Below, one piece after another: positions 559 through 20,000 of a stretch of 20,000 nt of DNA (its first letter is position 1; each line of letters begins with the position of its first letter). The position numbers and the translations under genes are program-made. Source of the DNA: an uncultured virus (IMG/VR IMGVR_UViG_3300028048_000125) (taxonomy: Duplodnaviria > Heunggongvirae > Uroviricota > Caudoviricetes); IMG/VR virus record IMGVR_UViG_3300028048_000125; one strand, 5' to 3'. The notes below the pieces were generated by a model, which ran no database searches, was not told the DNA's origin, and saw only the letters and a program-made list of their open reading frames with translations.

Positions 559-933
559 TCAGGCGTTGATGATTGCTCTCTCGAAATCCTTGAGAGCAGC
601 GAGGATGTTGCGCTTCATTTCTTCGGCGCGGTCGGAGCAGCACTCAGGGCTGCACCCATTACTTACTGTAGCACGCTGTTTGATGTCACGCGAAACGCGC
701 ATCTGGACATCATTCGTGTCGAAGATGACGATGTCATTGTCACGCAACAGCGCGTTACGAAGATGGCCAATGTAGCTGTGACCATTGCGGATAATGCGAA
801 TACGCGCATCTTCCACATCATAGCCACCAGTTTCAAGGGCCCGCTTCAGCTTGTCAACAGTGGTGTTACCGTTGATGGCAAGCTTGTTGGTTCTGACAGA
901 CTTTACGAGGAAAGTCACTGTCTTTTCGCTCAT
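559..933 (-). CDS. Putative ubiquitin-like (beta-grasp) protein with Cys-containing C-terminal extension
   Basis: TVTFLV...TTVDKLKRAL...IRIIRNG...LRDNDIVIF matches the Ubl pattern; SD GGAGG; start overlaps the E1 stop; no terminal Gly-Gly. Confidence 0.6.
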   Translation of the reverse strand: MSEKTVTFLVKSVRTNKLAINGNTTVDKLKRALETGGYDVEDARIRIIRNGHSYIGHLRNALLRDNDIVIFDTNDVQMRVSRDIKQRATVSNGCSPECCSDRAEEMKRNILAALKDFERAIINA

Positions 934-1841
934 TAATTACCTCCTTGGGGTGTTGTGAGCATGTGGGTTAACGGTACTGACTTGAACGTGTTCTCGTCCA
1001 GTACCACTTCGTTGTAACGACACGTCTGCCCCTTGCGAGTGGGGAAATCGCTCAGAGTTCCATGCGTTACCCAATGTACGAACATTTCCATCATCTTAAT
1101 AGCGACAGCACAATTGGTGAGCGCGACCTGGTCGTGCTTCGGTGCAACAATTGTACAAGCGATCTCATCGGGTCGCTTGTCACGATCAGGACGGATGTTG
1201 TCAAACAGCTCCGGGAGATTCGGATCCAAAGCTCTACCCTCCATCCTTTCGTAAATGCTGACCTCACCAGTTGTCTTTTCGTTTCCGCCATTGATAACCA
1301 AAATGTTATTGAAGGCCTCGGCGTACATCGAGATCTCATAACGGGTTTTTGCGTTATCAACGCAGATGAAGATAACAGGAATGTCCATTACATACATACG
1401 ATTGCCAATCAGCCGATCGGAAAGACAGAGATCATCGAACGTTTTTGTATTCTCTGCGTTTTCTTCCGGATTCTTAACCGGTATAATGTTCCCGATATTC
1501 TGCGGCGTAAGATAACAATTGTAGCCGTCCAGTTTAATGTTCCGCAGGAAAGTCTTGCGGATCATCTTCTCCTGCAGGTCGAGCATACGCTGCATCATCT
1601 TATTGCCAGCCCCTGCACCCTGTCGGATCGCATTGTGGGGATCAAACGTATCCCCATCGATCAGGGTGATGCTGTCAACAATAGATGGCAGTGCGCATTT
1701 GCCTGCATTAGTCATGAATGGCGAAATGTCGATACTGTTCTGCTCAAGGAAGTCTAGGCACATACTTGCACAGCACTCTGACAAGAGCTGTGTCACGTAG
1801 CCGCCTATCCCTCCGCAGCCTACAACGTAAAGCCTCAGCAC
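933..1841 (-). CDS. ThiF/MoeB/E1-like adenylating enzyme
   Basis: VVGCGGIGG nucleotide-binding loop, LIDGDTFDPHNAIRQ, ICVDNAKTR, INGGN, candidate catalytic Cys in RPDEIACT. Confidence 0.92.
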   Translation of the reverse strand: MLRLYVVGCGGIGGYVTQLLSECCASMCLDFLEQNSIDISPFMTNAGKCALPSIVDSITLIDGDTFDPHNAIRQGAGAGNKMMQRMLDLQEKMIRKTFLRNIKLDGYNCYLTPQNIGNIIPVKNPEENAENTKTFDDLCLSDRLIGNRMYVMDIPVIFICVDNAKTRYEISMYAEAFNNILVINGGNEKTTGEVSIYERMEGRALDPNLPELFDNIRPDRDKRPDEIACTIVAPKHDQVALTNCAVAIKMMEMFVHWVTHGTLSDFPTRKGQTCRYNEVVLDENTFKSVPLTHMLTTPQGGN

Positions 1842-3208
1842 TCCTCATCCTCCTCGTCTTTCGGATTAGCATGCTCTGCCTGTGCTGCCAGGATGGTCTC
1901 ATATGCCTGCTTCAGCGTGGTCAGCCATGTGTTCACGGTATCATCGGACACACACGGCGTATCGGAATACGCGGACGCCGCTTTCTGAAGCAGATAGCAC
2001 AGAGACTCGACATTGATATCATTGCCAAGTGCATTTCGCTTATCTACGATATTGAAGTCCGGTCGCAAGTCCATCAGCCCTTCGAAGATCTGTCTGGCTT
2101 CTTCGTCCTCCAGATCCTTCAGTACCGTTTCACCGGTCATCATATCTTCGATCGAGATAAGAACATCCGTCTTGTCGAGACTATCGACAATCATAATACC
2201 TGTGGTCATCTCCAGAGGTCCTCGAACGGCCGGATCTGTGAAGACATCAACCAACATGGCAGCTGTATCACTGTCGTTGAGAGCATCGAGTATGGCATTC
2301 TTGAGCTCTTTGGTTGAGTCCACGGTAATCTCTGAGGCTGTAGTACCTGTGATATCATCTGCATAATCTGACTCCCATGCACCACTTGACCAGCCGCCGT
2401 ACCATCTGCTGCCGTACCAGTCAGCACCATACCAGTTGCTTCCTCTATAGGTGTTGTACCAGCTGGAATAACCGTAATCAGGATCGTAGGTGTAACCTGC
2501 ATAGTTGTCTGCTGGCTTGTAATGACCCGCAGGCAGGGTACGTTGTGAGACAACGGCGCCATTGTTGCCGTAGACTTTGACTGTCGCGGTTGGCTTGCGA
2601 TAGGATTGGCGCTTAATTGTTTCAACCCACTCCTGCACAGGCTCATACACCTGTGTGAAGTCGACATCCTCCAGAACATCTTCGATGTCCTGATCTTCCT
2701 GCTGGCTCGGGAAGAAGACGGTGCACTTGATCTGAGATACCAGACCGTTGCGCAGGCCAAACACGATGTGCAGGCCATGTTTAAACTGCTGATCGTTCAG
2801 GTCTGTGCCGCTCCAGAACGCACCCATCTCAGGATGCGTATGGATGCTGCCAAGAAGGGCATACCCTTCCGGCATATCTTTTCCATCATCGTAGAAAGAC
2901 ACAGAGGCACCGCTGCCATTCTGTTCCGGTACTTTGACAGCCCACTTCTTTTCTTCTGTGCTGTAATAGAGACTGTAGGCGGTCTCCATCTTGGGGAATT
3001 CGTGGATTGTCCCCAACACCTGCTTGAGAAGGTCTGCCTGCATCTTGGCGCCTATCCAGCGAGGACCATGGAACTTGTCTGTATCCAGTTCTTTACTAGC
3101 ATAGGTTTGCAGATCTTCAAGGTTCTTTGGCTTAACCCAGCCATCGAGACACTCACTAATCAGTCGTACACGCACACCGTCGTTACCGACTACATAATCT
3201 TTACTCAC
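1835..3208 (-). CDS. JAB/MPN+ (JAMM) metallo-isopeptidase with long C-terminal extension
   Basis: Upstream Glu (KMETA) and GSIHTHPEMGAFWSGTD = H-x-H-x7-S-x2-D; followed by a Y/W/G-rich linker and an acidic helical region. Confidence 0.9.
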   Translation of the reverse strand: MSKDYVVGNDGVRVRLISECLDGWVKPKNLEDLQTYASKELDTDKFHGPRWIGAKMQADLLKQVLGTIHEFPKMETAYSLYYSTEEKKWAVKVPEQNGSGASVSFYDDGKDMPEGYALLGSIHTHPEMGAFWSGTDLNDQQFKHGLHIVFGLRNGLVSQIKCTVFFPSQQEDQDIEDVLEDVDFTQVYEPVQEWVETIKRQSYRKPTATVKVYGNNGAVVSQRTLPAGHYKPADNYAGYTYDPDYGYSSWYNTYRGSNWYGADWYGSRWYGGWSSGAWESDYADDITGTTASEITVDSTKELKNAILDALNDSDTAAMLVDVFTDPAVRGPLEMTTGIMIVDSLDKTDVLISIEDMMTGETVLKDLEDEEARQIFEGLMDLRPDFNIVDKRNALGNDINVESLCYLLQKAASAYSDTPCVSDDTVNTWLTTLKQAYETILAAQAEHANPKDEEDEEC

Positions 3209-3395
3209 AGCGGTTCTCCCGTTTCAGTGCACTTGCAATGCATGCCTGAACATCACGCGACAATGTGAAGTTCCTGGTCACGTCCAGTGCGCTCTCGAAA
3301 CATTTCTCAAAATTGTGTTCTGTCAGCATAGGAAGCTTCGTAACCTGTGGAAGCACCTTCTGCGGACGTTTGCGTTGTTTGATCGATTTAATCAT
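3201..3395 (-). CDS. Small hypothetical protein (64 aa)
   Basis: Fills the gap between the E2-like and JAB genes, overlapping both by 8 nt. Confidence 0.55.
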   Translation of the reverse strand: MIKSIKQRKRPQKVLPQVTKLPMLTEHNFEKCFESALDVTRNFTLSRDVQACIASALKRENRCE

Positions 3396-4329
3396 TCATA
3401 TCCATCCCAAGGAATCTATCCGCCGGCATGATCTCTGTGAACTTGAAAGCTTTCATGGATTCCAGATCAGAGAAGACTCTGGCAAGCCTAATCATATGAA
3501 GGATGCTGCTTCCGTTATGCGAATACCGGCTAAGCAACGCCTCATATTCGTCAACTTTCGGCAAATCTTTGTATGCACGCTCGGCTGAAAGCTTATCTCT
3601 GTCGTCCAGCAGATCATAATTGAACTGCGAGTTGAAGAAGCGTTGATAAGTCAGCTCGATTGCCACAGCTTCCGTTACTTTGACTCCTGGTGGTACGTCA
3701 TAACTTGTATCGCCCCAACAGATATTACCGCTGTCAAAGATATTCGGGAAAGGCAGATGACATACCTTGGTCTTCTCAAGGTCGTTCATATGTTCAGGTA
3801 CTGCCACCATCATTACCTGATCAGGTACATTGGCAGCTGTAAGCTGAACCCTGAGCCACATGCGAGGATGATAAATATGCAACCTCTGATCAACACCCTG
3901 GAGATCCATCTCGAACTGGGTAGGTGGGATCTCCACAGTGATATCTTTGGCTCCGGCATCCAGTACACACCACCGAATGAGTGGATACTTCAGATTCGGT
4001 GTAATGGCGATCTTCTGACCTTGCAGCAGTCTCTCGGCAAACGCATCAAAGAAGACATCTTGAATGTCTTTGATGTGATAGCGTGCAACGTTATCACCCA
4101 GAATGCGCAACACCTGCTCTTTGGTTGAGTCTTTAATGACCGTGATATGTTCTTTGTCTCCCTTCAGCGTTGGTACCACTCGCGTGATAAATTCATCCAC
4201 TGTCATCTCTTCCAGAGAATCAAAGTGAACGGCCGTAACGACGCCTCCATGCTGATGGAACAGATCGGACTGTCTATCTACAAGGTGCATAAGACCTGTA
4301 GGAAACGTGCTGTCAATGTCACCGATCAT
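3388..4329 (-). CDS. Prokaryotic E2-like conjugating enzyme (Prok-E2 family D / PRTRC protein B-like)
   Basis: HLPFPNIFDSGNICWGD with candidate catalytic Cys, downstream FFNSQFN; operonic with JAB and E1. Confidence 0.75.
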   Translation of the reverse strand: MIGDIDSTFPTGLMHLVDRQSDLFHQHGGVVTAVHFDSLEEMTVDEFITRVVPTLKGDKEHITVIKDSTKEQVLRILGDNVARYHIKDIQDVFFDAFAERLLQGQKIAITPNLKYPLIRWCVLDAGAKDITVEIPPTQFEMDLQGVDQRLHIYHPRMWLRVQLTAANVPDQVMMVAVPEHMNDLEKTKVCHLPFPNIFDSGNICWGDTSYDVPPGVKVTEAVAIELTYQRFFNSQFNYDLLDDRDKLSAERAYKDLPKVDEYEALLSRYSHNGSSILHMIRLARVFSDLESMKAFKFTEIMPADRFLGMDMND

Positions 4330-6277
4330 TTAGTAGTTCCTTAAATTGTTGTTCGTTTATGATTTTGATCCCTAGCCTTTCGGCTTTGGAACGCTTGGAC
4401 CCGCCACCCTCGCCAGCCAGCAAATAAGAAGTTGAAGATGAAACCGATGACACAAACTTGCCACCGTGATCTTCTATCAGCTTCTTAATCTGATCCCTGC
4501 TCTGCGAAAGTGTCCCAGTAATGCAAAATGACAGACCTGTGAGTTTTTCGCTGACAAGCTCAGTCTTCACCTGCTCCATACAAAGACCCAGCAATGACAG
4601 ATCATTGATTAGGGTTGCTTTATGTGGACTGTGAATACTGATAAAGATGGAACGAGCTGTGATCTCGGCAAAGCCTTCAATCTCTGCAATCTCAGGAATA
4701 GAAGCTTTTAGCAACGGAAGCATAGACCCGAAATGCTTTGCTACGATCCTTGCATTGGTTGTACCTATGCCATCGATACCTATTGCGCACAGAACACGGT
4801 CGAAAGGCTTCTGCTTCGACTTTTCGATCTCAGCGAGCACAGAGTCTGCTTTCAGATCTTTGCTAATACCAGGAAGCTGGAGATCTTCCTTTGTTAGCTT
4901 GTACAGATCCGCCGGGGAATGCAGCTTACCCTTCACGATAAGCGCATGGATCATGGCGTCAGCCATGCCCCGTATGTCCATACACTGCCTGCTTACGAAA
5001 TAGCAGATCTCTGCCTGCAGCTTCGCAACACAGTCGTCATTAGGACACAGCAATGCGGCCCCATCACGAACAAGCGCAGCTCCACACTCTGGACAAAGCC
5101 CCGGTATTGGAACCTCGGCACCACCCATTGACTCAACGACATGGTCGAGTTGAGGGATAATCTCTGCTGCCTTATAGACAGCCACCATATCGCCGAGCTT
5201 AAGATCCATCTCTTTGATGTAGTCGATGTTATGCAGACTGGCATGGGTCACAGTCGATCCGCACAGACCAACCGGATCCAAGACAGCCACAGGTGTCAGT
5301 GTGCCTTTACGTCCGACTTGCCAAACGACATCCTTCAGCTCTGTAACAGCTTCTACCGGTGTAAATTTGAAGGCAATGGACCATTTAGGATCATGTACAC
5401 CCTCACCCAGCTCCAGCCGTTTGGCTCTGTCGTCTGTCTTGATAACAGCCCCATCAATTGCATACGGGATGTTTGCTTCATCAGACTTCAGGGACATGAT
5501 CACATAATATGCGAACTCACCCGGATCGGCCATACGATTGGACACAAAGTTCATCTGTGGCGTCAGGAACCCATTCTCCTGCAGTATGTTGAGCATATTG
5601 CACTCTGTACCTGTGTTCAGCCCTGGAATATCATACGCATAGAATGTGAGCCGTCTGCAGCGCGTGACTCTGGGATCTTTGTTTCTAACGCCGCCTGCTG
5701 CGGCGTTACGCGGATTGGCGAACAGTGGTGCTCCTGTAACCTGGCGTTCGAGATTCAGCGTCTCGAACTCATGCTTATGGATAACCACCTCGCCACGAAC
5801 GATCAGTTTTTCCTCTTTGATTTTCACCGGGATGGACTTGATCATCAACGCATTCTGCGTAACATCTTCGCCAACATCCCCATTGCCACGAGTCGCTGCC
5901 CGAACCAGCATATGGTTCTCATAGAACAGGACCAATGTTAAGCCGTCCAGTTTAGGCTGTACGACATAACCTTCACCAGCTAACGCCAGCGTCCGGTCCA
6001 CGAAACGATGAACCTCGTCAGCCGTAAACGCATTTGCCAGTGACAGCATCCGTTGCGGAAATGGAACCTTGTCAAAGCTGCTTACCGGATGACCTCCTAC
6101 ACGAGAAGTCGGGCTGCTCGGCAGCTTGATCGATGGATCCGCTTCTTCCATCTCTTTGAGCCTCCGCACAATTGCATCATAGTCTGCATCGGACATGATG
6201 GGTGCGTCGAGCTCATGATAGGCCCTCTCGGCTTCGAGTGCCTTACTTAGCAGTGCCTTGTAGCTGTCTTGCTGCAT
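4319..6277 (-). CDS. ligA: NAD-dependent DNA ligase
   Basis: SDADYD, MLSLANAF, KLDG adenylation motif, TRGNGDVGEDVT, NPRNAAAG, C4 zinc finger (CPEC...CPNDDC), HhH repeats, C-terminal BRCT (FCITGTL...GGK). Confidence 0.98.
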   Translation of the reverse strand: MQQDSYKALLSKALEAERAYHELDAPIMSDADYDAIVRRLKEMEEADPSIKLPSSPTSRVGGHPVSSFDKVPFPQRMLSLANAFTADEVHRFVDRTLALAGEGYVVQPKLDGLTLVLFYENHMLVRAATRGNGDVGEDVTQNALMIKSIPVKIKEEKLIVRGEVVIHKHEFETLNLERQVTGAPLFANPRNAAAGGVRNKDPRVTRCRRLTFYAYDIPGLNTGTECNMLNILQENGFLTPQMNFVSNRMADPGEFAYYVIMSLKSDEANIPYAIDGAVIKTDDRAKRLELGEGVHDPKWSIAFKFTPVEAVTELKDVVWQVGRKGTLTPVAVLDPVGLCGSTVTHASLHNIDYIKEMDLKLGDMVAVYKAAEIIPQLDHVVESMGGAEVPIPGLCPECGAALVRDGAALLCPNDDCVAKLQAEICYFVSRQCMDIRGMADAMIHALIVKGKLHSPADLYKLTKEDLQLPGISKDLKADSVLAEIEKSKQKPFDRVLCAIGIDGIGTTNARIVAKHFGSMLPLLKASIPEIAEIEGFAEITARSIFISIHSPHKATLINDLSLLGLCMEQVKTELVSEKLTGLSFCITGTLSQSRDQIKKLIEDHGGKFVSSVSSSTSYLLAGEGGGSKRSKAERLGIKIINEQQFKELLNDR

Positions 6278-6308: not shown

Positions 6309-6420
6309 CTGTCATGATTATATACCAGGCGCTGCCTGGAGCCAATCTTCCTGCTTCAACTTCAGCGAGTACTCGCTGAATCCACAGGCACTTCGGGCCT
6401 GACCGGCCCTGCATTCTTCA
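6309..6420 (-). ncRNA. TnpB omegaRNA scaffold / element right end (5' boundary approximate)
   Basis: GCCTGTGGA...GAAGCAGGAA motifs typical of TnpB 3' ends; perfect 20-nt palindrome TTCAGCGAGTACTCGCTGAA (6361-6380); terminal hairpin GATT..CCAGGC-AGC-GCCTGG..AATC just before the end. Confidence 0.72.
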
Positions 6421-7480
6421 AATTGATTGCGGCATTGAGATCGCGGTCGATGACCGCTCCACAATGCTCGCATTTATACACACGTTCACTTAAATCGATA
6501 TGTGGTTTCACAGCACCACAGGAAGAGCACCTTTTGGTTGATGGGAAGAACCTATCAACCTTATGGTATTCAAGTGCCTTGTATTTGAGCTGCTGTAGGA
6601 TCATTCCCATCATTGAGGCATTAAAGGATCGTCGTAATGACTTGAATTGCGCTTTATCCTTCATTTCCTGTATGTGCAGATCCTCTGTTACAACAATCCC
6701 GTGGCTTTTGGTGATCGCTGTGGTGAACTTATGTGTCACATCCTTACGGATGTTATTAATCTTGTTTTGAATACGCTGTTTCTTGAGAAGAGCTTTGGCT
6801 CTGTTGTTGGAGCCTCTTTTCTTCCTATTGATAGCTTGTTGAGCCTTCTTGAGCTTGGCATCAAGCTTTTTGAGGCTTTCAGGAGCATCGCAAATGGTGC
6901 CATCAGATGCAACCGCCACATGTTTCAATCCGACATCTATGCCAACTGCAGAGTTCAGATTATTTGTCTGCGGCAGCGGATCTGGAAGCTCATATTGTAT
7001 GGAGACATGCCACTGACCAGCATAATGACTGACAGTGTAACTTGTTATCTTGCCTTCAAATCTAGGGCGTTCAGCAAGTCTCACTCTGCCTATATTTGGA
7101 AGGGATATTCTGTCTCCATATATTCTAGCTTTGTCATTAGCAACTGTAAAGCTATCCTTTCTACCTTTCTTGTGGAATGTAGGATACTTTCCAGTGCCTC
7201 TCCAAAGATTTTGAAATGCTTCGCCAAGATTCTTTATGGCGTTCTGTTGTGGACTACATGCTATTTCATGCGCCCACTCTGGCTTTGCTGCTGTCCATAT
7301 ATTGGATAATATACTAAAGGATGGTTTCTGCTTAGAGTGATCTTCCATCCAATCAGAATACATGGACTTCCACTTATCCAGTGCCCAGTTATACACGTAT
7401 CGTGCGGTGCCTGCTGTCTTTTTCAGCATCACCTCTTGCTCCTTTGTAGGATACATGCGTATTAGATGGGCTCTATGCAT
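6362..7480 (-). CDS. tnpB: TnpB RNA-guided endonuclease (IS200/IS605/IS607 superfamily)
   Basis: N-terminal IRMYPTKEQ...ARYVYNWAL, RuvC-I GIDVG, RuvC-II TEDL, zinc finger CSSC/CEHC, RuvC-III DRDLNAAIN; catalytic D-E-D intact. Confidence 0.96.
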   Translation of the reverse strand: MHRAHLIRMYPTKEQEVMLKKTAGTARYVYNWALDKWKSMYSDWMEDHSKQKPSFSILSNIWTAAKPEWAHEIACSPQQNAIKNLGEAFQNLWRGTGKYPTFHKKGRKDSFTVANDKARIYGDRISLPNIGRVRLAERPRFEGKITSYTVSHYAGQWHVSIQYELPDPLPQTNNLNSAVGIDVGLKHVAVASDGTICDAPESLKKLDAKLKKAQQAINRKKRGSNNRAKALLKKQRIQNKINNIRKDVTHKFTTAITKSHGIVVTEDLHIQEMKDKAQFKSLRRSFNASMMGMILQQLKYKALEYHKVDRFFPSTKRCSSCGAVKPHIDLSERVYKCEHCGAVIDRDLNAAINLKNAGPVRPEVPVDSASTR

Positions 7481-7589
7481 TTCTTTTATACCTTTGGTAG
7501 AATTTCGGACTATATTGTCCTTATTTACTATAGCATCATCGTCAAAACAAGATTTGAAGAATGACTTAGATTGGTTGTATAACCATGGT

Positions 7590-7883
7590 TCTGTTCAACA
7601 GGTATCGCTACTACCTGCCAGGTTTCCAGTTGTCAAGCTGGACCACTCCCATGCTTTCGCATGGGCACTGACTATATCATTTACCTATTCCTAGGTAAGA
7701 GCACTTCCCCTTTCCAATAGCTTGATCGGGTACTCCTGTTAAGGATAGTCGATGAACCTTCTTTGCGGCGGGTTTCTCTCGCTGCAAAGCTCGGCTTAGG
7801 ATTAGCATGCACTGCTGTGTTTAGCCTTCCCTAAATTAACTTTCTTGTTCGATAAGGATTACTCCTTAAAGGGACTCTTACGA
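7590..7883 (-). ncRNA. Group I intron catalytic core of the RT intron (3' boundary approximate)
   Basis: R-like GTTCATCGACTA (P7 5' strand 7746-7750), S-like ATGATATAGTC (7670-7674), P9 CCCATGC-GAAA-GCATGGG (7648-7665). Confidence 0.88.
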
Positions 7884-8825
7884 ATCCTGAATCACGGGGT
7901 CATTCCCATCGAATCCTTCATCCGACTGAGCCCTGCAAGCATTCATATAGCGGACACAACCGACAACCTTTGCCCACTGCTTCCAGTCGTCATACTGAAT
8001 CTCACCACCTTGGTTGATAAAGACCTTGTAGTACAAATTGCAGACAGCCGCCCGTGTATTCTGTCTGTAACGACGGCTGGCATTATAGCCCTTACCATCC
8101 TGACGGATGACGATACCGAGCTGTCGCGGACTGGAATGCGGAGCACCTCTGAATACACAACGATCTTTCATGTGGTTAAGCTCCAAGCCTAATGTGTTCT
8201 TGATAATGGTTTCAACACCCATAAGGAACCAGACGAATGGATTCTTGCTGTGAGACTCGTGTGTCTTTTTCAGCATCTCTTCCATCTCTTTGCTTACATG
8301 CTCCAACGAAAACAGCATATCATCAGCATATCTGGTATAGACGAACCCGTGCTCCTTGGCATAGCTGGCAATCATGTTGTCAGCGTCGAACATGGCGATA
8401 TTCGTCAGCATCGGGCTAGCAGGGCCGCCTTGCGGTATCTGGCCATTGCATACGCAAACGCGCATGATACCGTCGACATACGGCTTAGCCACATAACCGT
8501 CCAGCATCTTCGCAGCTGCCATCGACGGCGGACAATTGTCAAAGAACGACTTGACATCACAGCTCACCCAGCAACGGGGTGTCCTTGAGTGTTTGACGAT
8601 CGATGTCATGCAGCCACGATACGGGATGAACCCATGCGCACATGCGGATACTTTAATAGTGCCTGCCCTGATCAAGGCATACAGATAATCCAGCACGTCC
8701 TTCTGCACTTCTTTAAGGGCATCATTCGGGATTTTGATATCCCTGAATTCACCCGGCGTCTTCTTTGGAATACGCCCATCCCGCCACGTTGTGTCAACAT
8801 GATTGAGATCGTAGAGGTTTAACAT
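7884..8825 (-). CDS. Retron-like reverse transcriptase, exon 1 (about 335 aa when spliced)
   Basis: IPKK..GEFRDIKIP...LKEVQ, AHGF, CDVKSFFD, IPQGGPASPMLTN, YTRYADD, QLGIVI; no maturase/endonuclease extension. Confidence 0.92.
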
Positions 8826-16361: not shown

Positions 16362-17024
16362 TTAGCCTTTCTGCGCTGTTCGCGCGTCGTGTAGTGATTG
16401 GACGAAGGGCGGCTCTTCCAGAATGGGGAGGCCGTCTGGGGTCCATTCAAGGGAGTCGAAAGTTTTCGCCTTCTTATCCCAATGTAGCATGCAGGATGAT
16501 TCTACACTAACCTTTACGTCAGTGATAAGAGAGCACATGCCCTGCAACATGAGCTTCTCAATGATAGGAATATGAGTTTGTAACTCATTGGGCCACAACC
16601 AGTAAACGAATTCGTCATGAATAAATGCGACCAAACGGTCAGCATATCCATTGTATACTAGATTCCAGCCGGCGAGCTTGGCTCCAAGGGCAACCTCTGC
16701 CTGAAACATATAATTCAGACTTGAGTTGAACGAACAGCGATCACGCATCTGACCACACTTCAATATAGCCATATACGCATGCTTTTTCTTGTCCTTTGGA
16801 TCCTCGTCTTCTTCTGAGTCCTCATCTCCCATCTGCCGAGTCATGCCGTAAGCATTGAAAGGAAGATCTGCACGTTTTGAGCGCAGCGGTATCTTATGCT
16901 GCTGCATTTCCGTGAAGGTCTCCTCCCAGGCTTTAACCATTTCCTCGGCTTGCTGCATAGTCAATTCAATGCCTTGACTACGGCAGTGTTGGTAGAATCG
17001 CAAAGCTTGCATTCCACCTGGTAA
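16362..17024 (-). CDS. polA: Family A DNA polymerase, exon 3 (LPGGMQ... to stop)
   Basis: Begins TTA CCA GGT GGA ATG right after intron G 17025; contains LNYMFQA and motif C LVAFIHDEF. Confidence 0.9.
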   Translation of the reverse strand, partial: LPGGMQALRFYQHCRSQGIELTMQQAEEMVKAWEETFTEMQQHKIPLRSKRADLPFNAYGMTRQMGDEDSEEDEDPKDKKKHAYMAILKCGQMRDRCSFNSSLNYMFQAEVALGAKLAGWNLVYNGYADRLVAFIHDEFVYWLWPNELQTHIPIIEKLMLQGMCSLITDVKVSVESSCMLHWDKKAKTFDSLEWTPDGLPILEEPPFVQSLHDARTAQKG

Positions 17025-17101
17025 CAGTTGTGTTATCGGACAAGCTTTTTATCCTATCCTTCAGCGTCTTTCTGTCTATACACGCTGCTCAGCATATCTT
17101 T

Positions 17102-18025
17102 TCAAAAGCCTAAATCTGGTTGTACATCCCAGCCATCGACTTCCGGAGCGGCCTCGTGGTGACTCATATCCGAGCTGGACGTGTCACTATGCGTTGCCCC
17201 TGACTGCGATTCCTCGCAGCCTTCGGTTCGGGTTAGCTTGTCAGCCTTTCCCGCTTCATTCCGCTCTTTTAATTCGGCTCTTTCTTTGCATAATTCAAAT
17301 ATAGCAGTAGCAGTGACCTGTTCAGTTTTTTGCATCTGTTTGCTCATCTTATGCAGCACCATATGGCAGTTCGCGCAAATTATAGCGAGATTAGAGATAT
17401 CATTGTTTGTGCGATCCATATCCTTATGGTGCACTACCAGCGCATCCTGATCGTCTGCAAAGCCACAAATCTCACAGACATCATGTCCCGTCATCACCTT
17501 TGCGCGATATCGAGATCGAGCTGCTTCTCGCATCTTCTCTGCATTAGCTGCGTAATATGCTCTACGCCGTGCATTTGTCTGGACTCGCGCTTCATCAGAA
17601 ATAGTTGTTTCCGTGTTTTGACCACCACCGGAACCCACACCTATTCTAACGGTTGGATCTCTCAATGCACGTTCGGCCATAACAGACTTCGAGCGATGCT
17701 TATGCCAGCAGTCATCGCATCTAAGCTTTGTCGTGCGTCCGTGAAATTCAAATTGCTTGCCGCAGTCTACACAAGTTAATATTTTAGTGGGAACTGTATG
17801 CGCTAATTGACATGCCGCACAACAATACTGTTTGGTCGGCTTACCGGCTTTAAGCTTGTATGTAATCTCTTTCCCGCAACCCTTACATACACCTTTATGT
17901 AACTCAAGTTTACTTAAGCGATACGCTTCTTTGCATCGACCAGAACAATACTTGTGTCGCTTGTTTGTGCGCTCAAATTCCTTGCCACAATACAGGCACT
18001 TTGCTATTTTGCTATACTCTTCCAT
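17102..18025 (-). CDS. HNH homing endonuclease with N-terminal zinc-ribbon repeats
   Basis: Three CxxC...CxxxC-type repeats, then CEICG...LVVHHKDMDRTNNDISNLAIICANCHMVLH; SD AGGAG (18031-18035) favours ATG 18025; last ~60 codons read through the ribozyme core. Confidence 0.92.
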   Translation of the reverse strand: MEEYSKIAKCLYCGKEFERTNKRHKYCSGRCKEAYRLSKLELHKGVCKGCGKEITYKLKAGKPTKQYCCAACQLAHTVPTKILTCVDCGKQFEFHGRTTKLRCDDCWHKHRSKSVMAERALRDPTVRIGVGSGGGQNTETTISDEARVQTNARRRAYYAANAEKMREAARSRYRAKVMTGHDVCEICGFADDQDALVVHHKDMDRTNNDISNLAIICANCHMVLHKMSKQMQKTEQVTATAIFELCKERAELKERNEAGKADKLTRTEGCEESQSGATHSDTSSSDMSHHEAAPEVDGWDVQPDLGF

Positions 18026-18037
18026 AAACACTCCTAA

Positions 18038-18088
18038 TAATGGTGGACATCTACCATTACTGTAGCGTCAAAGAACAAAACTATGCAA
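18038..18088 (-). promoter_or_regulatory. Candidate internal promoter and hairpin for the HNH gene
   Basis: TTGCAT-18 nt-TACAGT (18088-18059), and an inverted repeat TAATGGT...ACCATTA (18038-18059) immediately before the SD. Confidence 0.4.
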
Positions 18089-18097
18089 TACCATTTT

Positions 18098-18109
18098 ACC
18101 GAAATTTGC
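18098..18109 (-). CDS. polA: Family A DNA polymerase, 12-nt micro-exon 2 (Ala-Asn-Phe-Gly)
   Basis: GCA AAT TTC GGT supplies the missing NFG of motif B; preceded by G, ends in U; pairs with both introns' guides. Confidence 0.88.
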
Positions 18110-18381
18110 CTTTACATTTAATACTGTTCGCTACGCAGTATCCAGGATATACCTGCACATACTTTCATATGTGAATCGACTATGTAATCTACTCATTCCT
18201 GAGTAGGAGTGCTTCCACACGCTTGTGTGTACGTCTTACGACTAGTCTGTGAACCTTCCTGTAGCGGGCGGTCTGTCCATCTACAAGCTCGGCTGCAAGT
18301 AGCCATGGCTTTCACTTTAGGTTTCCTTGCAATTCACTGTTCTTTGCTCATACAGTCACCCGTATGAGGGCCAACAAATTT
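18110..18381 (-). ncRNA. Group I intron 1 of the polymerase (272 nt, no ORF)
   Basis: P1 GGCU/GGCC with U.G; P10 AAAUUUGU with exon GCAAAUUU (8 bp); GTTCACAGACTA and TTACATAGTC form P7 (18243-18247 / 18178-18182); P9 with GAAA loop (18156-18173); terminal G at 18110. Confidence 0.9.
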
Positions 18382-20000
18382 AGCCTTGGCGTCTTGGCGC
18401 TGTTTCTTTGTAACATGCTCTTCCAAAAACGCATTTGTTTTGGCGACCCACTCTGGATCGTCCTTATTGGACAGATCAGGTGTTATCAGCTTATTCATTA
18501 CACCAGCGAACCAACGATGAGGATCTATACCTGCATTAATAACATCAGCCATCACAGAATGACCAAATCTATCAATGCAAGATTGTGCAAAACCGCACAA
18601 TTCCACGTAACTGAAGTCCGTGGCACACAGAATTGCTCCCTTGGGAGGCGCAAACATATTCTTAATTGTCCACACCGGATCCCTCGAAGGAATTATCTGT
18701 ATTACCGGTTTATTGGCACTCGTTCTCCCGGTTCTTAATAATGAGGTATATCTGGGATGAACTTTACCATCAGCCTTCACATCTTCATGATTGAAGAAGG
18801 TGCTTTTGAATTTCTCCATGTGTCGGTACTTAGTATAGACATCCAGGAACGGATCCTTAATGCCCATATCATCTAACCGCCACTTGTCATTCAAAGTAAG
18901 CTTGTAGTCACCACCATCGGTCGTTGGCAGCTCTAGTCCAGGATTGTTATCCAGCAGATTCTTGTAATGTTGTTGCAAGAACGTTTTTGGTCCCACCTGC
19001 TTCTCGCTGCTTGTCCAATGCGGATTATCGTCTATAATGTCGCCTGCATACTCGATTGCATGTCCGAGATCATAGCCTTTTTCCTTCTTCGTCCCCTGCT
19101 GTTTGATCAGATCCTCCATGACATGCCCAAACAGCGCATTCATGACAATATCCTTACCAGCATCGAAGAAGGCATCCAGCCGATACTCTTCCATCATTGC
19201 ATCGAATACGGGCTTCTCTGCTTTGCGTATGTTCTTTGGCTTTTCTTGAGTCAGCCAATAACCCACGCTTTGTTCGAAGTCCTCAGTCTCATCAGCCACT
19301 CCTGCAAAGTTATACATGTACAGTAGCGCCATACGCATATTACCTTTGCACAGATTCAATGGCTTTTCCAGCTCCACTCCAGTCAGCTCCAGAAACTGCG
19401 TGGTCTGTTCTTCAACAAACCTCTTGTAGTCACCGTTCTCGTCCTGGTTCTTTTTATATGGATCCGGGAATCCGAATGTCAGCAGCTGGTTGCGATATTC
19501 ATCTTTAGCGGCCTGCAATTTATCCTCGAATGCCTTGTAGACTTCAGGATCCACATCAAAGCCGTTATAGGTGATATGCGCAAGCACTACCATGCCCTTT
19601 GAGTGCGCGACTTCAGTTGGCTGCTCTGGTACAGCTTCTGAGAGCGCCCAGGTGCTAACACAGTCCCACATCAGATAGATAGCCTGCTCCTGTGTGATAG
19701 GAGTGCCACGTCTAAATGTCAATCTGTGGGATTCTGGGTCATCCTTTTCGCCTTTATCAAGCTGAATACCAAGAATAAGTCTTGAACAATCTTCGAGACT
19801 ATAGTGATTGTATGGTATGAATCCTTTTGTGGCAATGTCATGCAGCTGTACGCGTATCTGCATATCCCTGACTCGGCCATATTCGATGGCGTCCATCAGT
19901 GCCTTCTCAGGATCCACATCGTTCAACACGTGCTCATCAAAACCCAAATTGAAATAAACCTGCCGAATCTCTTGTTTACTCAACTGGTTGATGAACACAG
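18382..20000 (-). CDS. polA: Family A DNA polymerase, exon 1 (5' partial)
   Basis: ExoIII-like YLMWD, VHPRY...RTGRTSA, motif A ATDFSYVEL, DPHRWFA, start of motif B RQDAKA. Confidence 0.93.

Follow-up and report, generated by a model that had tools for sequence, protein, structure and literature searches.

A probable 12-nucleotide exon between two group I introns in motif B of a phage DNA polymerase gene

The 20,000-nucleotide (nt) stretch of an uncultured Caudoviricetes virus analysed here (IMG/VR record IMGVR_UViG_3300028048_000125, hereafter the window) ends in a family A DNA polymerase gene (polA) that is interrupted within its conserved motif B. Two reading frames of this gene, separated by 1357 bases, can be recognized on the same strand, one closing with RQDAKA and the other opening with LPGGM, which raises the question of where the N-F-G residues of the motif are encoded and what occupies the remaining space. 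The answer favoured here, to which we assign a probability of about 0.85, is that two independent group I introns lying 12 nt apart interrupt motif B, and that removal of both joins RQDAKA, ANFG and LPGGM. All coordinates are those of the window; the polA locus is read on the minus strand, as are all the genes of the polA region, and its parts are the following.

18382–19998, minus strand: polA exon 1, with a Pfam DNA_pol_A match (PF00476, 1.1e-12) and a tblastn alignment to amino acids (aa) 78–642 of P0067
18110–18381, minus strand: intron 1, a 272-nt group I intron without an open reading frame (ORF), terminal G at 18110
18098–18109, minus strand: micro-exon GCAAATTTCGGT, coding for A-N-F-G of polymerase motif B
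17025–18097, minus strand: intron 2, 1073 nt, predicted group I core laid out like IA2, terminal G at 17025
17102–18025, minus strand: HNH homing-endonuclease ORF of 307 aa, its ATG preceded at 5 nt by AGGAG
16362–17024, minus strand: polA exon 3, with a tblastn alignment to aa 643–851 of P0067 and a weak C-terminal match to Pfam DNA_pol_A

The polymerase frame and its missing residues

Exon 1 corresponds to the final 1617 bases of the window, the N-terminal ~78 aa of the polymerase lying beyond the window end, and it closes with KKQRQDAKA, the last codons being AAGGCT at 18387–18382. Exon 3 opens at 17024 with TTACCAGGTGGAATG, which reads LPGGMQALRFY, extends to a stop codon at 16362 and aligns with the C-terminal third of the same polymerases as exon 1. 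The assignment to family A is based on the DNA_pol_A domain and on motif B (R..AK..NFG), which is restored once the exons are joined.

A homolog search covering 5.8 billion proteins yielded 103 clusters, which were sorted by their ending. An unbroken K..NFG.PG was present in 31 of the 103, whereas 17 stopped within 30 residues after NFG, nine stopped just after R..AK and 46 ended further upstream; some protein clusters stopped at other points, for example after ANF. Three clusters (3/103, among the nine R..AK stoppers) stopped exactly after AKA, the site of intron 1, among them P0004, which shares 95% identity with the window and carries the same read-through peptide. In the alignment of 23 full-length homologs the consensus was RQxAKAANFGLPGGMG, in which N, F and G hardly vary, and intron-less homologs read AKAANFGLPGGM across the exon joins. 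The three-exon model had been put forward in a first-pass annotation made from the sequence alone, which named this comparison beforehand as its refuting test; the intron-less homologs were found to carry ANFG between AKA and LPGG, the three segments being joined without a break. A single long intron (18381–17025) was considered and rejected, because it would delete residues that the homolog consensus keeps, and because it ignores two complete ribozymes. The annotation's own objection to a one-intron model, that conserved NFG would be lost, is thus upheld by the homolog alignment.

Relatives of the locus were obtained with alignment A1, which was required for this purpose, a related-locus search with P0002 alone returning nothing. 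The polymerase relatives reside on viral contigs of 164–179 kilobases, and window DNA was found publicly in bovine gut metagenomes. Among named phages, megablast of the locus gave no match and tblastn retrieved distant polymerases alone, with identities of 35% or less. A practical consequence of the arrangement is that gene callers split polA into pieces and drop four near-invariant residues, and many relatives are likewise mis-split, at least 26 of the 103 homolog clusters ending at motif B.

The micro-exon and its flanking introns

ANFG was indeed located where the first-pass annotation had placed it, on a micro-exon at 18098–18109 that is preceded by the G at 18110 and followed directly by intron 2 on its 3' side. 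By our arithmetic, about 0.005 12-mers coding for A-N-F-G would be expected by chance in the 1357-nt gap, a figure that holds before the flanking terminal G and the pairings are demanded. All 12 nt are engaged in such pairings: nt 1–8 constitute the P10 partner of intron 1 (8 base pairs (bp), one of them G-U) and nt 7–12 (TTCGGT) the P1 partner of the intron 2 guide GCCGAA (6 bp, with a G-U at the splice site), and the two pairings share 2 nt. This scheme had also been proposed in the annotation, and pairing of the sequences bears it out. In the related locus L156, the same 12 nt are joined without a break to CTGCCCGGTGGAATG.

Intron 1 has the features expected of a group I intron, that is, a core above the Rfam threshold, a G-U in P1, a terminal G and a P10. 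Its match to RF00028 spans 18391–18156 and the full model (1–253), with 57.9 bits (gathering score 50) and an E value of 1.4e-12. In P1, GGCT-AA (18385–18380, the hyphen marking the splice site) pairs with TTGGCC (18374–18369), leaving a G-U at the splice site; the P10 strand is formed by the first eight bases of the intron, AAATTTGT (18381–18374), and P7 is GACTA/TAGTC in the Rfam alignment. In L156 a related intron occupies this site, and ANFGLPGGM follows downstream without interruption. In L160/L161 and L164, relatives of intron 1 stand one codon (3 nt) downstream, at AKxA-NFG, with the same P1 (GGCTAA/TTGGCC), and the L160 relative forms a 7-bp P10 of its own with its 3' exon (CGAAATT with AATTTCG). 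The splice sites assigned to intron 1 are supported by these relatives, since they share its P1 and since the P10 of L160 matches its own 3' exon.

Judged from its sequence, intron 2 is also a group I intron despite having no Rfam match, and this identity is assigned because of its same-site homologs, of a wider family of related elements and of covariation. The guide and the ribozyme core, the latter delimited with alignment A2 and pair counts, comprise the following predicted elements, all on the minus strand.

17273–17278: internal guide GCCGAA, pairing with micro-exon nt 7–12 (TTCGGT)
17025–17272: ribozyme core
17266–17261/17151–17146: P3
17253–17250/17232–17229: P4
17246–17243/17238–17235: P5
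17219–17214/17209–17204: P6
17192–17188 (GCATA)/17096–17092 (TATGC): P7
17187–17183/17163–17159: P7.1
17145–17141/17107–17103: P8
17087–17086/17063–17062: P9 (outer pairs)
17059–17053/17044–17038: P9.1

The helices follow the order P3, P4–P6, P7, P3', P8, P7' and P9, with the P3/P7 pseudoknot, which is the group I order. Their covariation was assessed by laying the hand-drawn P3 to P9.1 on the 15-member alignment A2, with shuffled and slid controls: 95.5% of the cells were paired and 26 of the 44 pairs had changed on both sides, while none of 500 shuffles did as well and the slid controls reached 27–37% paired. The P7.1 hairpin, a single one in the place between P7 and P3' where IA2 introns carry the additional P7.1/P7.2 pairing, had changed on both sides in four of its five pairs; with the helix order and the pseudoknot, it gives a layout of the IA type. 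By eye, the layout and the 3' end resemble those of the Twort orf142 introns; a kinship to IA2 introns is suggested by architecture alone. The two P7 helices, GACTA/TAGTC in intron 1 and GCATA/TATGC in intron 2, had been read in the first-pass annotation as the mark of two separate ribozymes, and the Rfam alignment and the coordinates agree with that reading.

The position of the intron 2 guide, absent from that annotation, was placed in the present analysis. It stands past most of the HNH ORF, ~820 nt further downstream than the 5' splice site; a guide near the 5' end was also looked for by eye, and no fitting sequence was found there. The exon TTCGGT and the guide GCCGAA occur together in all seven polymerase-site copies, every one of which ends in G before (L/F)PG, and GCCGAA precedes an A-rich linker and P3 in 7/7 polymerase-site homologs. 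In L001, a 238-nt copy without ORF at the identical site, the guide comes 11 nt after the 5' splice site, which corresponds to an 11-nt P1 loop. The HNH gene is assigned to the P1 loop of intron 2 because in the ORF-bearing copies GCCGAA stands just before P3; the ORF reads through the guide and P3–P8, its stop codon falling in the 3' strand of P8. L002, L143, L147 and L155 present the same ORF layout, with the stop 77–94 nt before the intron end. The product was recognized both by Pfam HNH (1.4e-4, 22.4 bits for a cutoff of 21.4, residues 184–223) and by the PHROG family phrog_1271, HNH endonuclease (7.6e-24).

Some ORF-bearing copies show a further peculiarity at their 5' end. In L002 (2433–2440), L147 and L155, the bases after the 5' splice site nearly copy the guide (GCCGAAGT, TCCGAAGT and TCTGAAAT, respectively). 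Such guide-like starts yield the read-through NFG(S/A)E(V/I/D), found in seven of the 17 clusters ending after NFG, and are absent from the window and L143; they may represent the footprint of ORF insertion or a competing pairing.

The wider family of intron 2 was gathered in unrelated viral contigs with a 14-mer taken from J8/7-P7'. Exact matches to an 18-mer of the core were found in at least 105 viral loci, so the family is common; among the matches listed, L239 is the only one in this polymerase family, and the scan of viral contigs gave no second case of twin introns among them. Most members (A2 columns 121–148, e.g., L031, L016 and L058) have the P7.1 loop TGAAAAGATATAAT, which nearly repeats TGAAAAGATATGC, the string at J8/7-P7' of that intron, and the loop of the window differs. 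A DNA contig from the public run X2 matched only P7 to P7' (17087–17205), with unlike sequence on both sides, and it is probably another member of the family from elsewhere in the same metagenome.

An ORF of this kind could also stand on its own. In such a scheme, a free-standing HNH endonuclease would divide polA into two genes and only intron 1 would be an intron; the first product would end in ANFGKMVLHSFVL and a stop, the second would begin with the Met of LPGGM, and the two polypeptides would assemble afterwards. The frame after ANFG does close after nine codons, an ATG is available at 17012–17010, the HNH ORF has its own AGGAG, and the RNA contigs considered below do not hold the spliced form. 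However, the 250 nt before exon 3 form a group I core, both conserved and covarying, whose last base is a G placed precisely at the codon boundary, and in L001 the same element lacks the ORF and the downstream part begins with FPGALG, offering no start codon. In addition, a strongly conserved motif would be deprived of LPGG, and the putative Shine-Dalgarno sequence GGTGGA directly abuts the ATG. Taken together, this renders a split gene extremely improbable.

Origin and expression of the locus

The two introns belong to a wider set of insertions. Related loci were mapped in 33 cases, some of them duplicates of one contig, and the insertion points around motif B can be arranged as follows.

After AKA: the window and L156
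One codon on (AKxA-NFG): L160/L161 and L164
Around F/G of NFG: L159 and L165
After NFG: the window, L001, L002 (=L146), L143, L147, L155, L157 and L239

At least four insertion sites are therefore used in the stretch of codons A-A-N-F-G in a single gene family, and only in the window, among the 33 mapped loci, are two sites occupied at once. Intron 2 occurs without intron 1 in L001, L002, L143, L147 and L155, and the intron 1 site is occupied alone in L156; L142 is intron-less. Since each intron occurs alone, and since at least four sites are crowded in a few codons, the micro-exon appears to be a by-product, left where two mobile introns settled at neighbouring hot-spot sites, and not a designed unit. 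The possibility of a twintron was ruled out, the introns being adjacent and separated by a coding exon of 12 nt, and each being found alone elsewhere. The term "twin", used in the first-pass annotation, is accurate as to their adjacent positions; it does not extend to their nature, as they are of different sub-types and each stands alone in relatives. Related introns inserted one codon apart are well suited to the study of site shifts by introns.

Further interruptions of this polymerase family (relatives L001–L007 and L142–L166) fall at about aa 325, 532, 565, 749–751 and 779 of P0067, several of these other insertions being RF00028 group I introns, and up to three or four interruptions can be found per polymerase gene (e.g., L002 and L160).

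Data from public runs bear on the arrangement itself and on its expression. DNA contigs from X2, which belongs to a different study, cross both outer junctions (exon 1/intron 1 and intron 2/exon 3) at 99% identity or more, and the arrangement is therefore not an assembly accident of one sample. In X18, an RNA library, positions 16616 and 18383 are connected in a contig from a relative of ~92% identity by 418 letters, compared with the 421 expected for the window without its introns; this contig is either an intron-less relative or spliced RNA, two origins that contigs cannot separate.

Several observations weigh against the proposal of two active group I introns. As regards splicing, the predicted junctions (GCCAAGGCT to GCAAATTTCGGT and AATTTCGGT to TTACCAGGT) were not present in the RNA-library contigs of X4 and X19, rumen metatranscriptomes that contain this phage, no public-run contig covered 18082–18288, micro-exon included, and an X4 contig (16803–17041) continues from exon 3 into intron 2 for 17 nt and is hence unspliced RNA or DNA. 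In intron 1, J8/7 differs at two positions from that of L156 and L164 (ATTACATAGTC versus ATGATATAGTC), changes that could lower its activity. As for intron 2, RF00028 found no match to it in the window at E ≤ 10, nor to the ORF-less L001, and at E ≤ 1 it found none of 12 other loci of the family; the A2 profile searched with nhmmer against the Twort and T4 introns gave a best E value of 0.081, which is not significant. Moreover, P7 of intron 2 is invariant in 15/15 members and so shows no covariation, its 3' strand having been within the 14-mer that collected the family, a source of selection bias; in alignment A2 no more than 65% of P5 is paired, and P10 to exon 3 amounts by eye to about 2 bp.

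At gathering threshold RF00028 also gave nothing over intron 2 in L002, L143, L147, L155 and L157. The model readily detects the Twort and T4 introns and misses all the intron 2 family members tested, which means that surveys based on Rfam under-count phage introns, this family going undetected by its model.

The same observations could be taken as signs of decay, with one or both introns no longer splicing and the polymerase being a pseudogene or dependent on a helper. The two J8/7 substitutions of intron 1 and the unspliced contig across the 3' junction of intron 2 in an RNA library are in line with this, and PMC11878797 describes phage introns that splice only in vivo. Nevertheless, all exons are open and conserved, every helix of both introns is intact, as is the HNH ORF, and the same arrangement is maintained at 99% identity or more in the DNA of a second study. 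A decayed locus is thus considered improbable.

If both introns of the interrupted polA are active, as their sequences predict, they would be spliced through the usual two-step guanosine pathway. Intron 1 would probably be the first to leave, because it is complete ~820 nt of transcription before the guide of intron 2 exists; it could then use the micro-exon for its P10 first, and the 2-nt overlap would cost nothing. Skipping of the micro-exon would leave the reading frame intact, as pointed out in the first-pass annotation, and would probably be disfavoured by mismatched guide pairing. On a reading of the sequence, the end of exon 1 (GGCT) does not fit the guide GCCGAA beyond a G-U, and the start of exon 3 (TTACC) does not fit the P10 strand of intron 1, so that skipping looks unfavourable by pairing. 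With respect to mobility, homing started by the HNH enzyme of intron 2 would carry the ORF-less intron 1 along by co-conversion.

The first-pass annotation had gone further in suggesting ordered and alternative splicing, the shared micro-exon enforcing an obligatory order or allowing regulated production of a polymerase without ANFG. The overlap of the two helices and the in-frame outcome of skipping are compatible with such a functional unit, and exon skipping by phage group I introns, in Twort orf142 and SIOphi, is reported in PMC11878797. Yet each intron is found alone at this site in relatives, so neither needs the other, and the misfit of exon 1 to the intron 2 guide and of exon 3 to the intron 1 P10 strand opposes the skipped product. 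Neither the spliced nor the skipped junction appeared in the X4 and X19 RNA contigs, and the suggestion gains nothing from them; besides, the introns of the Twort skipping locus share near-identical 3' halves, whereas those of the window differ. A dedicated functional unit is accordingly very improbable.

One may also combine these ideas in a single broad scheme, in which the introns would form one mobile cassette and one splicing unit, with HNH homing both, a fixed handover from P10 to P1, and failure giving an in-frame polymerase without ANFG as a check or regulator, intron 2 representing in addition an abundant altered-P7 phage class missed by Rfam-based annotation. As a whole, this scheme is unlikely. 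In the preferred reading of two independent introns, the 12-nt exon used by both adjacent ribozymes is a natural test of the minimal exon for neighbouring group I introns.

Neighbouring features and known systems

Elsewhere in the window, all on the minus strand, the following features were identified.

7878–8825, minus strand: reverse transcriptase (RT) ORF, Pfam RVT_1 1.8e-18, running into a second Rfam group I intron
7893–7648, minus strand: second group I intron, Rfam 61.9 bits
6362–7480, minus strand: TnpB-like ORF following the second group I intron, with OrfB_IS605, Cas12f1-like TNB and HTH_OrfB_IS605
4319–6277, minus strand: NAD-dependent DNA ligase
3388–4329, minus strand: Prok-E2_D ORF
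1835–3208, minus strand: Prok-JAB ORF, 23.4 bits, below the Pfam cutoff of 25
933–1841, minus strand: ThiF-like ORF

In the region 6362–8825, a group I ribozyme and an IS605 element appear to be combined, within the RT gene or behind it, in a chimera of the IStron type, a concept treated in PMC3984707. The ThiF-like, Prok-JAB and Prok-E2_D ORFs make up a ubiquitin-like conjugation trio (933–4329), which the DNA ligase adjoins in the phage replication region.

Group I introns with HNH endonucleases are known in the family A polymerase genes of SPO1/SP82, Bastille and T7-like phages. The polA introns of the window resemble them in the choice of a conserved polymerase motif, in the HNH endonuclease and possibly in an ORF overlapping the core; they differ in that two sites 12 nt apart are occupied at once, and in that the P1 loop houses the ORF, which continues across P3–P8. 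ORFs overlapping intron cores and collaborative homing of ORF-less introns are both reviewed in PMC3984707, and by analogy with the latter the ORF-less intron 1 could depend on the endonuclease of its neighbour.

A literature search for phage micro-exons or mini-exons with group I introns returned PMC11878797 as the only phage paper, the others being mitochondrial. Side-by-side tandem group I introns are described in fungal mitochondria (PMC10352661 and PMC8393795), and in PMC10352661 mini-exons of less than about four codons, standing between group I/II introns, are described as regular in mitochondrial genes. The organellar mini-exons share with the present one their shortness, the conserved residues encoded, the self-splicing introns on both sides and the fact of being missed by gene callers, the difference being that they belong to organellar genes and that of the window to a phage gene.

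The closest parallels come from phages themselves. PMC11878797 records phage genes that contain two or three group I introns, a short exon flanked by two introns within the phiNIT1 reductase gene, exon skipping in SIOphi and Twort, and phage intron variants missed by current models. The window resembles phiNIT1 and Twort in that a single essential gene of the phage contains several group I introns, internal exons are short, HNH endonucleases are encoded in loops of the introns, and conserved motifs serve as insertion points. For Twort, the RF00028 matches fall at 16606–16892, 16973–17197 and 17248–17506, with gaps of 80 and 50 nt, while the internal exon of the window has 12 nt, each base of which is in P10 or P1. 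The Twort introns share their 3' halves, whereas the window introns are of different sub-types, and splicing was demonstrated by experiment in the phiNIT1 and Twort phages, the window being known from sequence alone. The locus is an extreme example of the known intron hot-spot pattern, and not a new kind of system.

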